This document shows, piece by piece, positions 3,001 through 9,000 of a DNA stretch of 64,000 nucleotides. Positions within the stretch are counted from its first letter, which is position 1; each line of letters begins with the position of its first letter. Made by a program: the position numbers. This DNA is from a plasmid. The DNA lies in assembly GCF_988243305.1 (NCBI RefSeq), contig NZ_OZ547137.1; one strand, given 5' to 3'.

Positions 3001-6000
3001 GTTTTCCCACGTTTTCACGTTGAGCGTTTTTGCTATAGCCGCAATATCATCTTTCCGGGCACTGTAGTCGCAGTCAACAGAAGTGGTGAGACGCTCATCA
3101 GGCAATCTGTCGCCGTATTGTGCATGATAATAGGATATCCAATATTGCACAGCCTGGCCGCCAACTGTGATAACGGCATGTTTGAGCTGGTCAGCGTTGC
3201 AGATCAACTGCTGATTTAGCAGATACATCTGCTCATAGGGGGGAATAACGTCTTGAACTGGCATAAAAAAACCATCAGCGAATGATGGTTTATTGTGCCT
3301 CAAAGTTCAGGATCAGGCAAAAGCGATAGTATGGGAGAATTTGCTATTGGCTGACTTACTGAAACGGCTTTTCACGGCAGGCTTGTAACCGGCACGACCA
3401 CGCAAAACCTGCACCGCTACGGCTTCGTAGCGTTCATGCTGCTTTTGTTTAGCTTGTGCGGGAGACATAATTTTGTACCTGATGGTGGTTATATACAAAT
3501 AAGCTGTAGTAACTATACGTCACGAATCTACGTCACGCAATAGCGTACTATTGTTGCAATTTTGATGTACTTCCAGACTACTGTCTCATCCTGCAGTGCT
3601 TCCCGTTCTGCCTGCATTCCTTATTTACCGTATGTCCGGCTCAGTTAACCGGATTCAAATTCCGGTGTCCCTCCCGTCCTGACCGGTAGCAGACAAGCCC
3701 AAGCCTCCTGTAACAATAAAAGGGGTACCAAGCCGCAACCACCGAAATTTCCGGAATGCACAAATTTTGCGCTCGGCAACCTGTACGTAAGACCGCTGTT
3801 AACCGGACAGCAAAGAAATAGCTGTCTGGCGCGAAAAATCACTGCCCGTAACGTATCCATAGCTGGTACGAATAAATTCTGGGGTCTGAAGTCCAATGGA
3901 ACGAAAACGTACGTTAGTGAAGTCACTGTCTGATATATCATAAATTATCAGACATATGAAAACAGTGCCGTTAATGTGTCTATTAAATCGATTTTTTATT
4001 ATAACAGACACTAGTTGTCCGATATTTGATTTAGGATACATTTTTATGCGACTTTTTGGTTACGCACGGGTATCAACCAGTCAGCAGTCTCTCGATATTC
4101 AGATCAAAGCGCTCAAAGATGCAGGTGTAAAAGCAAACCGTATCTTTACCGATAAGGCATCCGGCAGTTCTACAGACAGGGATGGGTTGGATCTGTTGCG
4201 GGTAAAAGTAGAAAAAGGTGATGTCATTCTGGTGAAGAAGCTCGACCGTCTTGGCCGCGATACCGCCGATATGATCCAACTGATAAAGGAATTTGACGCT
4301 CAGGGCGTCGCCGTCAGATTTATTGACGATGGGATCAGTACAGATGGTGATATGGGACAAATGGTGGTGACCATTCTGTCCGCAGTGGCACAAGCTGAAC
4401 GCCGGAGGATACTGGAGCGTACAAATGAAGGCCGACAGGATGCAAAAATGAAAGGTATTAAGTTTGGCCGTAAACGCTCAGTGGACAGAGGTTCTGTGCT
4501 GGCGTTGCACCAGAAAGGTACAGGAGCAACAGAAATTGCCCGTCAGTTAAGTATAGCCCGCTCTACGGTTTATAAAATTCTGGAAGAAGGGAAGGCAGAA
4601 TAGGCCAATATTCACACAATTAACTAATATTTTCTACGCAATACGTGACACCTTTCGAGGAGAGGTGCTCGAAATTTCAGACATAAAAAGCCCCGTAGGG
4701 CCTTAGATGATTTCTTCCAATGCTGATTCCAGTTCTTTTACTTGCATTGCTCTAAGACGAGGAGCTAATGTTCGATGGGCGTTTAAGTAATCAATGGCTC
4801 TTGTTACCAGCTTTCCTCCGCCACAGACAACGAAATAACTCTGATGTTGTGTGTGTTGTGCATCAAGAACTGTGTGGCCTAGCTTCTCTATTGCGGTACC
4901 ACTCACTTCCTGCCATTTAGCCGTTATTTGAACGGTACCGGTATTAGTGAACAACAGGAAGTGGGCTATTTCATTCTTTCCCGCGATCAGACCAGGATAA
5001 CTGACATTTTTTTTAAACGTCATCGGAGCTTCTGAGTTACTTAGCTCAAAGCCTGCCCCAGAAATAATTGCTTCAATATCACGCAGTAATTCTGCTCTGG
5101 ACATACTTTCACCTTATCGTGTTGTATCTTTTTTGATCTTGGGGGGGAGGCAGAATTTTCAAGATGTAGGCGTTTTATTTTATGGTTAATAATCACCGCC
5201 ACTCTTATGGTGAGAGATCGGGATAGGGGCTGATCTCACGATTAGCCTCCTCCCACACCACCGTACATACGGGTCCGTATACGGCAGTTCGGTTATGTTT
5301 ATCGTCGCCTGCCTATAACTCCGGTAGGCCCAGTCTGACGAACAGGCGATTGGGAAGTGCTATGCTCAGTGCCGGACTACAGCTTATCCGCCATTGCTTA
5401 TGGCAACTCCCTACCGTTTGCGCTGCAAGGTCTTTGCTTACTCCCCGTCTGCGCAACTCTTTGAAGCGCTTGCTGCCCGTTTTCCACTGTTTCCACAGGA
5501 CACTTCGCAACCTTCGCCTTATCCACCTGTTCAGATCTCTCATCAGCGTTTGCCACTGGTTCAGTCCATAGTAGCTTTTCCATCCCGTCAGATATCGCTT
5601 TAACGGTTCGATAAGCTGCTCTAGGCTTTTGCCCGTGTTACGCCCCGTCAGTTCTCTTATCCGGGTTTTGAACCGCTTCACCGATTCCGGCAACACCACA
5701 CACCACACCTTTCTGCCCCTCCTGAAGCTGTAACCCAGGAACTTACGCGTCTCCGGAAGCGCTACCGCGCTCTTCTTCGCGTTGAGCTTCAGCTTCAGTT
5801 TCCGGTTCAGCCAGTGCGTCAGCCCCGCCATCATACGGTTGCCTGCCCGTTCACTCTTCACATACACATTACAGTCGTCTGCGTAGCGGGCGAACTTCAG
5901 GCCGCGTTTCTCAAGTTCCTTATCGAAGTCATCCAGCAGCAGATTCGATAACAGTGGCGACAGTGGGCCGCCCTGCGGCGTCCCTTCTGTCACCGGCATT

Positions 6001-9000
6001 ACCAGACCCGCTTCCATCACACCTGCATTCAGGTACCCGCGGATAAGTGACAGCACCCGTTTATCCGATACTCGTTTCGCTATCCGGCTCATCAGTACAT
6101 CGTGATTCACCCGATCGAAGAACTTTTCCAGATCGAGGTCAACCCCCCAGCTGTAGCCCGACTCGATGTATTTCTGAGCCTGCTTCACTGCCTGATGCGC
6201 CGAGCGTCCGGGCCGGAACCCGTAGCTGCTGTCGCTGAACGTCGCATCCCACTGTGCCTGCAACACCTGCATCATCGCCTGCTGGATAAAGCGATCCACC
6301 ACCGTCGGGATGCCCAACAGACGTTCGCCGCCGCCGGGCTTCGGGATAGTCACTCTTCTTACAGGGGATGGGCGGTAGCTGCCGGACAGCAGTTGCGCTT
6401 TCAGTTCCGGCCAGTGGTGTCTCAGATAGTCCGGCAGTTCGCTTACGCTCATGCCGTCGGCTCCCGCCGCACCTTTATTGGCCTTCACTCTTTTCAGGGC
6501 ATGCCTGAGGTTGACTGGTTCGCAGATGGCTTCCATCAGCCACGCTGTTGACGATGGACTTTCTCTGGTCGTCGGTGCCTGCACGGTTTCAGCCCCCTGA
6601 GAACCGGCGTCAGGGGCTTCACCCCGTCTTCCTGCATCAGGGTCGCGATACGTTTTCTGCTGCATGACCGTTCAGAACCTCCGCTGATACTCGTCACTCA
6701 TTACCGTTCGGGCCTTCAGACGCGCCTGTCCTACTATGCCCTCTGCTGACTCCTGTCCGCCGGTCAGCGCACCTTACGGTACGCTCAGTTCTGAATACAG
6801 AACGCCAGACAGGCCTCCCGGGGTAAGCTCAGCCGCTTTCACCACACACCTGCCCAATCTACCACCCCGGCTCTTGATGGTTATGGCCTTTGCAATCAAT
6901 GGCTTGCTCCGCCAGCCGGGTAGGCCTCATATCGGATTTCTGTTCGTCAGGTCATGGTTTTGCTCCACGCTTCCTTCAGATCCCGCCTCACGACGGCACC
7001 CTTGCGCTTCACGAGTCCTTCGCCACCATCAGGCTGGACAGGGGACTTTCACCCCCGAGCTGCTGAGCATGCCCGGCACACCATAAAAAAGCCCCCACGG
7101 GCTTTATTACTAAATTCAATACAAACAACAAATTATGCTCTTAACGTACGTTTTCGTTCCATTGGCCCTCAGCCCCCTGGTATTGCTTGCGCCAGAGAAA
7201 TAACTGGCTGGCTGCCACACCGTGTTGCCGGGCAACAAGGGAGGCCGTCATTCCCGGTTCAAAGCTCTGCTGAACAATAGCGCTCTTTTCCTGTGTAGTA
7301 CGCCGTCTGCGTTTCTCCGGTCCTAAGACATCAATCATCTGTTCTCCAATGACTAGTCTAAAAACTAGTATTAAGACTATCACTTATTTAAGTGATATTG
7401 GTTGTCTGGAGATTCTGGGGGCTAGTCTATCTTCAGCTTACGGGCTATCTGACGATGTGACCAGCAGTATGGTGGCAAAGCCATATCAGTCCTTTCTCTT
7501 TGAGTTCACCTAGCATTGTTATCTCCTTAAAAAATTGAGGCGACAACTATGCTGACACAGAGGGTTATTGATCTTACCCAGCAATAGTGGACACGCGGCT
7601 AAGTGAGTAAACTCTCAGTCAGAGGTGACTCACATGACAAAAACAGTATCAACCAGTAAAAAACCCCGTAAACAGCATTCGCCTGAATTTCGCAGTGAAG
7701 CCCTGAAGCTTGCTGAACGCATCGGTGTTACTGCCGCAGCCCGTGAACTCAGCCTGTATGAATCACAGCTCTACAACTGGCGCAGTAAACAGCAAAATCA
7801 GCAGACGTCTTCTGAACGTGAACTGGAGATGTCTACCGAGATTGCACGTCTCAAACGCCAGCTGGCAGAACGGGATGAAGAGCTGGCTATCCTCCAAAAG
7901 GCCGCGACATACTTCGCGAAGCGCCTGAAATGAAGTATGTCTTTATTGAAAAACATCAGGCTGAGTTCAGCATCAAAGCAATGTGCCGCGTGCTCCGGGT
8001 GGCCCGCAGCGGCTGGTATACGTGGTGTCAGCGGCGGACAAGGATAAGCACGCGTCAGCAGTTCCGCCAACACTGCGACAGCGTTGTCCTCGCGGCTTTT
8101 ACCCGGTCAAAACAGCGTTACGGTGCCCCACGCCTGACGGATGAACTGCGTGCTCAGGGTTACCCCTTTAACGTAAAAACCGTGGCGGCAAGCCTGCGCC
8201 GTCAGGGACTGAGGGCAAAGGCCTCCCGGAAGTTCAGCCCGGTCAGCTACCGCGCACACGGCCTGCCTGTGTCAGAAAATCTGTTGGAGCAGGATTTTTA
8301 CGCCAGTGGCCCGAACCAGAAGTGGGCAGGAGACATCACGTACTTACGTACAGATGAAGGCTGGCTGTATCTGGCAGTGGTCATTGACCTGTGGTCACGT
8401 GCCGTTATTGGCTGGTCAATGTCGCCACGCATGACGGCGCAACTGGCCTGCGATGCCCTGCAGATGGCGCTGTGGCGGCGTAAGAGGCCCCGGAACGTTA
8501 TCGTTCACACGGACCGTGGAGGCCAGTACTGTTCAGCAGATTATCAGGCGCAACTGAAGCGGCATAATCTGCGTGGAAGTATGAGCGCAAAAGGTTGCTG
8601 CTACGATAATGCCTGCGTGGAAAGCTTCTTTCATTCGCTGAAAGTGGAATGTATCCATGGAGAACACTTTATCAGCCGGGAAATAATGCGGGCAACGGTG
8701 TTTAATTATATCGAATGTGATTACAATCGGTGGCGGCGGCACAGTTGGTGTGGCGGCCTCAGTCCGGAACAATTTGAAAACAAGAACCTCGCTTAGGCCT
8801 GTGTCCATATTACGTGGGTAGGATCATATTACCCGATCTCGATGGACGTTATTGAGTGATCTCCTTCCATGAAGCTCGCCACGGGAATATCTGCGGCAGC
8901 GGGCCAGTAATGGGGTAAGTGATAGAGTTAACTCTGTGTTTTATGTGGGGATGATATGGAATTAAAACAAGACATCGAAAAAGAGATTATAAAATTAATA

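Follow-up and report, generated by a model that had tools for sequence, protein, structure and literature searches.

The closest precedent for the locus described here is TIME-RES, a 1186-bp element of Pseudomonas sp. described by Szuplewska et al. (2014; PMC4133298) as a portable module for site-specific recombination. It is a non-autonomous Tn3-family hybrid of a TIME and Tn5563, where a TIME-derived terminus is joined to the res and tnpR of the autonomous transposon without tnpA, and it was caught transposing at 7.8e-5 with 5-bp repeats (PMC4133298). TIMEs are miniature, non-coding elements (TIME/MITE) of 50-500 bp with both Tn3-type IRs from one element. Those of the IS101 family, known from pSC101, are 209 bp long with the order IR-res-IR; the res of IS101 is functional with the Tn3 and Tn1000 resolvases, and the IS101 ends are mobilised by the Tn1000 TnpA (PMC4133298, PMC13367494). 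ISEc63 is a catalogued 4473-bp Tn3-family element of the order IR-tnpA-res-tnpR-orf-IR, with a reference copy (NZ_AP027635.1, 14341-18813) flanked by the target duplication AGATC/AGATC. Additionally, Tn1/Tn2/Tn3 hybrids are known that switch next to res (PMC4611040). The Tn3/gamma-delta res spans 114 bp and includes accessory sites of 34 bp and 25 bp separated by a 5-bp spacer (PMC2602789), and the site I central dinucleotide is where the resolvase cleaves and religates DNA (PMC2602789, PMC13367494).

The segment at 3881-7177 of the window, the whole 64-kb stretch of plasmid DNA analyzed in this study, is bounded by two facing 38-bp Tn3-type IRs (3881-3918 and 7140-7177; 33 of 38 positions identical). 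Between them lie a res with all its subsites, an undamaged tnpR, an ORF of 133 aa, and a full-length group II intron, as the original prediction had described. The segment is 3297 bp long, or 1432 bp without the intron, and includes three ORFs. The 17-mer common to both IRs, AACGAAAACGTACGTTA, occurs exactly twice in the window, compared with 0.19 expected occurrences. The predicted absence of a Tn3-family tnpA between the IRs was confirmed in a tblastn search of the window with the ISEc63 TnpA as query, where the sole trace of tnpA was a 38-aa scrap at 29174-29287. The following features were identified, with site I halves and spacer assigned by comparison with TIMEs and ISEc63:

3876..3880 (no strand): ATTCT, putative 5-bp target at which the TIME originally inserted into an F-type plasmid backbone; empty in the ETEC-2265 plasmid (L012)
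3881..3918 (+): left 38-bp IR of the IS101-family TIME type; identical at 38/38 positions to the IRL of the complete 209-bp TIMEs L005 and L008, at 33/38 to the ISEc63 IR
3919..3926 (+): 8-bp TIME-type spacer GAAGTCAC; canonical form GAAGTAAC
3927..3954 (+): hybrid res site I, TGTCTGATATATCATAAATTATCAGACA, beginning 8 bp past the left IR
3927-3939 (+): site I left half, TIME-derived, TGTCTGATATATC
3940-3941 (+): central AT of site I, the crossover point
3942-3954 (+): site I right half, ISEc63-derived, AAATTATCAGACA
3977-4010 (+): res site II of ISEc63 origin, 34 bp
4016-4040 (+): res site III of ISEc63 origin, 25 bp
4046..4603 (+): tnpR, intact 185-aa serine resolvase, ISEc63 allele; Pfam Resolvase (9.2e-41) and HTH_7
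4687..4704 (no strand): terminator-like hairpin between the convergent tnpR and ORF133
4703..5104 (-): ORF133, 133-aa ISEc63 passenger of the PD-(D/E)XK nuclease superfamily; PF20472 PDDEXK_11, 1.8e-9
5217..7081 (-): group II intron, 1865 nt, GUGUG...CCCGAU; limits from intron-less copies
5313-6665 (-): RT-maturase ORF of the intron, 450 aa; RVT_1 and GIIM, TIGR04416 421 bits
7083..7110 (-): ISEc63 terminator hairpin AAAGCCCGUGGGGGCUUUUUUAUG, target of the intron; fold -15.2 kcal/mol, z -2.97
7140..7177 (-): right 38-bp IR of the ISEc63 type; 36/38 to the ISEc63 IR and contiguous with the ISEc63 tail
7178..7429 (-): truncated IS2 with its left end and the first ~63 orfA codons; putative original target of ISEc63, the remaining IS2 missing

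The left arm of 59 nt, from the IR through the 8-bp spacer to position 13 of site I, matched the TIME L008 at 58 positions and is IS101-family miniature-element sequence. Its sole difference from complete IS101-type TIMEs is the C in the spacer, a lineage marker that is also found in pFORC43-type plasmids. No homology to ISEc63 was found left of the site I centre. The site of the left IR was observed in its empty state in the ETEC-2265 plasmid (...aataaATTCT/cacttactgcacc), and about 24 PLSDB records among the matches listed align with the left flank and end exactly at 3880. The backbone that normally lies downstream of the empty ATTCT site was absent from the 64-kb window.

To the right of the site I centre, the segment and ISEc63 differ at 11 of 1372 positions (~99.2% identity). 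The res has three subsites as predicted, and their layout of 28-22-34-5-25 matches the 114-bp Tn3/gamma-delta res. The resolvase is likewise intact, while its closest solved structure is the Tn3 resolvase (5cy1, E 3.9e-103, residues 1-184), nearer than the gamma-delta resolvase of the original prediction (second best, E 3.6e-91). Its translation shows R8, S10, R68, and R71, and it differs from the reference ISEc63 allele by E57K. The 133-aa ORF had been called unknown; it is present, but its PDDEXK_11 match makes that description not quite accurate, and its protein, WP_000085189.1, also appears in the annotation of the reference ISEc63 copy, a Salmonella hybrid, and pFORC43. The right IR abuts the truncated IS2 orfA, and the flanks, ATTCT on the left and TGGTA on the right, do not form a 5-bp duplication, in agreement with the first description; the IS2 cut at this IR resembles a normal Tn3-family insertion. 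The IR pair is of mixed origin, with the left IR identical to that of TIMEs and the right IR of the ISEc63 type. Hence, the assumption of a single source for the IRs failed, as they came from an IS101-family TIME and from ISEc63, and res-tnpR was found to belong to a catalogued element of another architecture, namely ISEc63. As a chimera, the segment bears out its earlier interpretation only in part.

The joint between the two parts falls within site I, where the left half reads TGTCTGATATATC in the segment and TGTCCGAAATATT in ISEc63. The final TIME-specific base is position 13 of site I and the initial ISEc63-specific base is position 15, which places the parental switch at the central dinucleotide. 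As this is the point where Tn3/gamma-delta resolvases cut, the breakpoint argues for a loss of tnpA via a crossover between two res sites, and not via aberrant transposition. The central dinucleotide is AT in ISEc63 and GA, AA, AC, or TA in the sampled TIMEs, while the hybrids carry either AT (the window, pFORC43, and L001) or AA (pMCR_915_E1 and pBA92_2). This split fits the segregation of a 2-nt heteroduplex, yet it implies an inefficient reaction. In the work of Stark et al. from 1991, resolvase reportedly recombined sites with unlike central dinucleotides poorly. Given the unlike centres of the TIMEs and ISEc63, either a rare event or an unsampled TIME with an AT centre must be assumed.

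Joints of this kind were found repeatedly. The res locus had been predicted to be able to recombine with other res sites, and such repeat use was seen in the pFORC43-type sister plasmids, which share the left flank and the left arm, including its private AAGTCAC variant, followed by a Tn2-type res-tnpR-blaTEM-1 that is joined at the site I centre. Similarly, a different TIME arm with the centre AA is joined to a Tn2-type res in pMCR_915_E1, and pBA92_2 combines a TIME arm with a Tn3-type res-tnpR-blaTEM-1 of a different res sequence. A trio of records represents the states before and after such an exchange together with its reciprocal product: L005 is an intact TIME; L026 has the left flank of L005 and continues from the left arm of the TIME into a right part of the Tn3 type; and L027 has a tnpA 5' end, presumably of the Tn3/Tn2 type, and its own left half-site joined to a TIME right half, with the right flank of L005. 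A second reciprocal-type joint, in L028, involves the genuine IS101. In all five hybrid types and both reciprocal-type joints, the switch falls inside one 2-3-base stretch in the middle of site I.

The segment is best explained, with a probability of roughly 85%, as a recombinant joint between the res of an IS101-family TIME and the res of ISEc63 rather than as a designed cassette. The backbone of an EAEC IncF plasmid of the pAA type would have received an IS101-family TIME at ATTCT, and an IS2 copy on this plasmid molecule would have taken up an ISEc63 whose res pointed the same way as that of the TIME. The Tn3-type resolvase of ISEc63 may then have brought both res together in a synapse, with strand exchange at the site I central dinucleotide. 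Lost on the excised circle would be the right part of the TIME, the plasmid DNA between the two elements, the rest of IS2, and the tnpA-end IR and tnpA of ISEc63. Left behind would be the TIME IR with its half of site I, continuing directly into the ISEc63 half, sites II and III, tnpR, the PD-(D/E)XK ORF, and the ISEc63 IR; an intron of the IIC-like type probably retrohomed afterwards, directly downstream of the ISEc63 terminator hairpin. The two flanks would thus stem from two different insertions, which accounts for the missing target duplication. Neither a complete TIME at the ATTCT site nor an IS2::ISEc63 left junction was found in PLSDB, and we therefore infer the deletion in cis rather than observe it in an ancestor.

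The original prediction had favored an origin within a single gamma-delta-like transposon, where tnpA was lost when intramolecular transposition or a one-ended deletion placed the transposon's own IR next to res. While tnpA is indeed absent and just 8 bp separate the IR from site I, this origin is highly improbable, as the left IR is a perfect match to the TIME IRL compared with 33/38 to the ISEc63 IR, and the spacer and left 13 bp of site I are those of TIMEs and not of ISEc63. The switch at the resolvase crossover point, repeated with Tn2/Tn3-type partners, also argues against it. A chance homologous or illegitimate recombination within site I, without resolvase, would draw on the relatedness of the two site I sequences and on the frequent IS-driven rearrangements in such plasmids. 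It has similarly little to recommend it, since the two parents have no more than 1-3 bases in common at the switch, a length much too short for RecA-dependent exchange, no IS end lies at the joint, and the five hybrid types and two reciprocal-type joints all coincide at the same few bases.

Alternatively, the hybrid may have been made elsewhere by a res crossover and arrived as a trans-mobilised, TIME-RES-like cassette (IR-res-tnpR-orf-IR), with its right flank altered later by an adjacent deletion or inversion. The transposition of TIME-RES and the mobilisation of IS101 ends by the Tn1000 TnpA provide a route for such an arrival, and a duplication can be erased by intramolecular replicative transposition. 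In addition, a Salmonella copy (L001) carries this hybrid site I in a different, unrelated context. However, this copy also lacks a target duplication (GCACA/TATAT), so neither context provides evidence of movement as a unit. Its left arm is a different variant, with 4/59 differences compared with 11/1372 elsewhere (Fisher p 0.0025); this speaks against the favored reading, which has to assume either an independent event or a later exchange of the arm for this copy. Among 5426 complete E. coli genomes, 19 carried the hybrid, all of them with an identical flank, which fits one inherited event. Moreover, p510016_80 (L011), a relative of the ETEC-2265 plasmid, carries a TIME-type left end with the canonical spacer at the exact ATTCT site, and the cut IS2 is expected of an ordinary ISEc63 insertion. 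An arrival as a cassette also requires more events than a deletion in situ, and it is considered unlikely.

The proposed crossover between the TIME and ISEc63 places the segment among the described systems as follows. As in TIME-RES, a TIME-derived end is joined to the res-tnpR of an autonomous transposon without tnpA. However, TIME-RES is TIME-like at both ends, while in the segment this holds for the left 59 bp alone, with an ISEc63 IR at the right end; the TIME family (IS101 type) and transposon subgroup (Tn3/Tn1000 type) both differ; the segment has a passenger ORF and a group II intron in addition; and neither duplication nor movement was seen in its two contexts, only one of which occurs in E. 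coli. The joint of TIME-RES was not mapped to the res crossover point (PMC4133298), as it is here. With ISEc63, the segment shares half of site I, sites II and III, tnpR, the PD-(D/E)XK ORF, the terminator, and one IR, and thus has the res and serine resolvase gene of an autonomous Tn3-family transposon, while it lacks tnpA, the tnpA-end IR, the left half of site I, a same-element IR pair, and a 5-bp duplication, and includes an intron. With IS101-family TIMEs, it shares the left IR, spacer, and left half of site I, but the right half, the TIME sites II and III, and the right IR are absent, and at 3.3 kb with genes it is not itself a TIME. The Tn1/Tn2/Tn3 hybrids are likewise mosaics formed by exchange between related res, but both of their partners are autonomous and tnpA is kept (PMC4611040). 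Here one partner is a miniature element, which leaves one product without a transposase and the reciprocal product without a resolvase.

As predicted, an intact resolvase gene and a complete, symmetrical res remain at the locus. The tnpR allele is probably active at present, and the locus may serve in plasmid multimer resolution or in further exchange between res sites. Both ends could in principle be mobilised in trans by a Tn1000- or ISEc63-type transposase. Given a res crossover and a later landing of the intron, the segment, though instructive, is an ordinary outcome of known mechanisms.

The predicted full group II intron was supported by Rfam matches that cover D1-D4 and DV/DVI (RF02001, 137 bits; RF01998, 54 bits; RF00029, 38.7 bits), of which the DV/DVI match ends at 5217 and scores slightly below the 40-bit gathering score. 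Its exact limits are fixed by the intron-less sequence ...ggtgagag/cataaaaaag in L001 and L003, and its insertion postdates the ISEc63 part of the chimera. No endonuclease domain was matched in the RT-maturase by the domain search. The hairpin and U run stop 3 nt ahead of the 5' splice site, and the intron lies 8-9 nt past the terminator hairpin in the manner of group IIC, as class C introns are known to insert after terminators (PMC1702495, PMC3522654). The intron is thus a terminator-targeting, IIC-like intron, a class read from its target site, its Rfam matches, and its RT-maturase domain content. Class C introns are further marked by a shortened domain V and by the use of EBS1 and EBS3 only. 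It resembles bacterial class C introns such as B.h.I1 (PMC1702495) in its position a few nt past a hairpin and T run, the missing endonuclease match, and the compact length of 1865 nt. Related introns in Klebsiella and Providencia are also located 8-9 nt past a hairpin and T run.

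The element at 3881-7177 is a resolvase-made chimera of two elements, which was invaded afterwards by a terminator-seeking group II intron. It comprises the following features.

Features of the element
3881-3918: left Tn3-type 38-bp inverted repeat (IR), 33/38 identical to the right IR
3927-3954: res site I, 28 bp, starting 8 bp past the left IR
3977-4010: res site II, 34 bp, separated from site I by a 22-bp spacer
4016-4040: res site III, 25 bp, following site II after a 5-bp spacer
4046-4603: tnpR, intact, with the Pfam domains Resolvase and HTH_7
4703-5104, minus strand: 133-aa ORF with a match to PF20472, a PD-(D/E)XK nuclease superfamily domain (1.8e-9)
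5217-7081, minus strand: group II intron, 1,865 nt, GUGUG...CCCGAU, with limits set by intron-less copies
7140-7177: right Tn3-type 38-bp IR, adjoining a truncated IS2

The original prediction had described most of this structure correctly, including the two facing IRs, a complete three-subsite res next to one of them, the full group II intron, flanks (ATTCT on the left, TGGTA on the right) that are not a 5-bp duplication, and a right IR that cuts the orfA of IS2. What is left over of IS2 is its left end with about 63 orfA codons. A 17-mer common to both IRs occurred in the window only at these two sites (0.19 expected), and the res layout is the canonical one of Tn3 and gamma-delta (PMC2602789). 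A promoter scan of res gave no score above those of shuffled sequences. The resolvase, described as gamma-delta-type, is indeed intact, and the nearest solved structure to its product is the Tn3 resolvase (E 3.9e-103), with the gamma-delta resolvase behind (3.6e-91). The 133-aa ORF is likewise present, while its description as unknown gives way to the nuclease-superfamily match. The absence of tnpA also held: a search with the ISEc63 TnpA found no Tn1000- or ISEc63-like transposase encoded in the window, where the sole tnpA-like sequence is a 38-aa Tn3-family remnant (29174-29287, minus strand; 79% to ISEc63 TnpA residues 700-737). Additionally, the window contains a second serine recombinase gene (37618-38145, minus strand), 45% identical to the TnpR of the element; it is probably a plasmid resolvase, whose own res could be a further partner for site-specific exchange.

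A PLSDB search identified the res, tnpR, ORF, and right IR as those of ISEc63, a catalogued Tn3-family element. The plasmid pPSJ-22_1 carries a complete ISEc63 of 4,473 bp, arranged as IR-tnpA-res-tnpR-orf-IR with identical 38-bp IRs and a 5-bp duplication, AGATC. Between this copy and the window element without its intron, 11 of 1,372 positions differed to the right of the centre of site I, and zero homology was found to the left of it. In contrast, the 59-nt left arm of the window element (left IR, 8-bp spacer, and first 13 bp of site I) was found again in hundreds of plasmids, as the left terminus of IR-res-IR elements 209 bp long. Among them is IS101 itself, in pRAS3.3 beside tet(C), and the other arm-bearing elements are its close relatives. 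IS101 is a Tn3-derived miniature element (TIME) with a functional res that is mobilised by the Tn1000 transposase (PMC4133298, PMC13367494). The left IR of the window element matches the left IR of the 209-bp elements at 38/38 positions versus only 33/38 for the ISEc63 IR. In an exact-pattern scan of 185,579 representative genomes, the TIME left arm occurred at nine loci, all of them ordinary TIMEs, complete or truncated, in hosts that included Vibrio, Rahnella, Erwinia, and Pantoea; the hybrid site I had no match in the same scan.

Composition of res site I in the window element and its two parents
Window: left half TGTCTGATATATC, centre AT, right half AAATTATCAGACA
TIMEs: left half TGTCTGATATATC, centre AA or GA, right half AACATAATGGACA
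ISEc63: left half TGTCCGAAATATT, centre AT, right half AAATTATCAGACA

The left half of site I is that of the TIMEs and the right half that of ISEc63, and hence the parentage changes at the central dinucleotide, which is where Tn3 and gamma-delta resolvases cut and reseal DNA (PMC2602789, PMC13367494). Origin by an intramolecular transposition or deletion that removed tnpA from one transposon, as had been proposed from the position of the IR beside res, is contradicted by this joint between two elements. Homologous recombination is excluded as well, because the parents have just one to three identical bases at the switch, and no IS end was present at the joint. The simplest account is two insertions followed by a resolvase deletion. 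A TIME would have inserted at the ATTCT site and, independently, ISEc63 in IS2, placing both res sites in direct orientation on one plasmid, and resolvase would then have deleted all DNA between the two crossover points. Such a single deletion between two insertions would explain the missing tnpA, the IR beside res, the unlike IRs, and the lack of a duplication.

Both outer boundaries bear on this history. The uninterrupted backbone is kept in ETEC plasmids, where aataaATTCT continues directly into cacttactgcacc; the backbone expected after ATTCT is absent from the window. Among the matches listed, about 24 PLSDB records have a left flank ending exactly at 3880, and in p510016_80 this ATTCT site is occupied by a TIME-type left end that an IS110-family element has since cut. 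On the other side, IS2 is broken by the right IR in the manner of an ordinary insertion, and the other part of IS2 is missing. Synthetic junction queries of PLSDB found neither a complete TIME at the ATTCT site, the joint being covered by no record, nor the left junction of an intact ISEc63 in IS2 (IS2, TGGTA, and IR). The ancestor was thus not found in PLSDB, and the deletion in cis is therefore what we infer.

The plasmid p510016_80 was also considered as a source of the ancestral right half and rejected, as its IS110-family element interrupts site I itself and unrelated DNA follows on the other side. This element (3568-5142 of that locus) has the ends GGGGTCAGTTTGGATAT and lies inside the left half of the TIME site I; the same end was also found in Vibrio mytili, adjoining the right end of a TIME, and in the ETEC-2265 plasmid (at about 3722), close to the empty site. 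Just past the IS2 remnant, the window has a complete IS3 at 7566-8820 (orfA 7625-7933, orfB 7930-8796). The similarity to most related pAA plasmids breaks off at 7566, so this insertion seems particular to this plasmid lineage. Further out are IS66-family accessory genes upstream of the element (757-2052) and the aatD/aatC/aatB dispersin-export genes downstream (9494-12160), which together identify the window as part of an enteroaggregative E. coli (EAEC) pAA-type IncF virulence plasmid.

Joints at the same point were found in other plasmids. For example, pFORC43-type pAA plasmids have the left flank and left arm of the window, including its private spacer variant GAAGTCAC, joined at the centre of site I to a Tn2-type res-tnpR-blaTEM-1. 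In pMCR_915_E1, a different TIME arm (TGTATGATATATC, centre AA) is joined to a Tn2-type res, and in pBA92_2 this second arm is joined to a Tn3-type res-tnpR-blaTEM-1 of a different res sequence. The left flank of the pBA92_2 unit is that of an intact TIME in a plasmid of E. coli 2013C-3513. The reciprocal arrangement was found in pKSE-C11_2 (locus positions 3977-4183), where the 5' end of a tnpA, together with the left half-site CGTACGAAATGTT belonging to it, is followed, from the centre of site I, by the right half of that site, sites II and III, and the right IR of a TIME; the right flank is that of the same intact TIME, and IS6100 truncates the arrangement upstream. Similarly, pEaer-4382b has a second reciprocal-type joint (3977-4183) with the left half-site CGTACGAAATGTT, its partner being a genuine IS101. 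Both joints give a resolvase-less tnpA-res-IR arrangement, with a tnpA fragment that we take to be of Tn3/Tn2 type from the Tn3 TnpA N-terminus. One TIME copy is therefore represented by its intact form and by recombinants of both kinds, and this trio is the most telling evidence for repeated exchange. The hybrids have centres of either AA (TIME-type) or AT (transposon-type), which, going by the established mechanism of resolvases, would fit segregation of a 2-nt heteroduplex from a staggered cut; sites with unlike central dinucleotides are reportedly poor substrates for resolvase (Stark et al. 1991).

Transposase-less IR-res-tnpR-blaTEM-1-IR units span 10662-11400 of the pFORC43 locus, 5001-6915 of the pMCR_915_E1 locus, and 3425-5345 of the pBA92_2 locus. 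In each, the left IR and the adjoining half of site I are of IS101 type, and none of the three has a target duplication. Many units of this kind may have been annotated wrongly, as truncated Tn2 or Tn3.

The hybrid itself was present in 19 of 5,426 complete E. coli genomes, with an identical left flank in all 19, and six further genomes carried the pFORC43 form at the same site. One other context was found, in pCFSAN017963_01 of Salmonella Minnesota, where the hybrid is intron-less and flanked by GCACA and TATAT. A recurrence of the tnpA-less structure with target duplications, proposed as a check in the original prediction, was therefore not observed, this sole other context being without one. 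The Salmonella left arm differs from that of the window at 4 of 59 positions, versus 11 of 1,372 elsewhere (Fisher p 0.0025), which suggests either a separate crossover that involved another TIME variant or replacement of the arm at a later time. No close enough match was found among empty-site relatives of its right flank. With a single left flank in E. coli and no duplication in either context, nothing shows the hybrid transposing as a unit; such mobility is conceivable in principle, since Tn1000- and ISEc63-like transposases use ends of these two types.

The intron is secondary, as neither the Salmonella hybrid nor ISEc63 at other locations contains it. Rfam models matched its domains D1-D4 at 137 and 54 bits, and a DV/DVI match ending at 5217 scored 38.7 bits, slightly below the gathering score of 40. 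Its 450-aa ORF has RVT_1 and maturase domains and no match to an endonuclease domain. The ISEc63 hairpin AAAGCCCGUGGGGGCUUUUUUAUG closes the 5' exon, and two relatives, one 90% identical in K. pneumoniae and one 79% identical in P. rettgeri, are likewise placed 8-9 nt past hairpins with T runs, unrelated in sequence. Class C (IIC) introns insert after terminators (PMC1702495, PMC3522654), and the placement of this intron is of that kind, the likeness being one of insertion site. The window holds an intact intron. In several sister plasmids, including NC_011752.1 of E. coli 55989 and pFORC43, the region matching 5217-7081 is split with IS66-family genes annotated inside, and it appears to be interrupted by an IS66-family element.

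The mechanism is not new, and known, well-understood parts explain a transposon without transposase. Hybrids of Tn1, Tn2, and Tn3 provide a precedent, as they arose by exchange at res between related Tn3-family elements (PMC4611040). The TIME-RES of Pseudomonas is a TIME-derived hybrid that carries res and tnpR like the window element and, as a difference, was captured while transposing (PMC4133298). In the searchable literature, which is itself incomplete, we found no account of recombination between IS101-family TIMEs and ISEc63 or Tn2/Tn3. The joints are evidence from nature that Tn3-type resolvases act on the res of IS101-type miniature elements, a point that earlier had rested on laboratory work of the 1980s (see the summaries in PMC4133298 and PMC13367494). 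Anyone annotating virulence or resistance plasmids, such as EAEC pAA-type plasmids and blaTEM-1 contexts, should expect IR-res-tnpR and tnpA-res-IR half-elements with flanks lacking a duplication; their joints mark resolvase-made deletions or fusions, and a kept tnpR-res pair can go on rearranging the plasmid.

A broader and rather doubtful reading is that the res of IS101-family TIMEs makes them all-purpose recombination partners for enterobacterial plasmid transposons of the Tn3, Tn2, and ISEc63 types, with the transposase-less products mobilised in trans. If so, each exchange would split an autonomous transposon in two: a module with resolvase and competent IRs but no transposase, such as the window element and the TIME::Tn2-blaTEM-1 forms, and a reciprocal part with tnpA but no resolvase. 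The TIME res would then be a natural device that shuffles and re-mobilises tnpR and cargo, including blaTEM-1, and not merely a relic.

An interpretation of pEaer-4382b as a res x res cointegrate with both reciprocal joints was rejected, as its second TIME arm belongs to a nearly complete IS101 cut by an ISKra4-like element. ISKra4-like (ISKpn19-type) elements were also located at 1561-3000 of the Salmonella hybrid locus and at 274-3095 of another compared locus (L029), each accompanied by a pRiA4b ORF-3 family gene and a small serine recombinase. The first stops 8 bp short of a TIME-type IR, on its outer side, while the second is inserted within the right IR of an IS101, and these elements may prefer Tn3-type ends.
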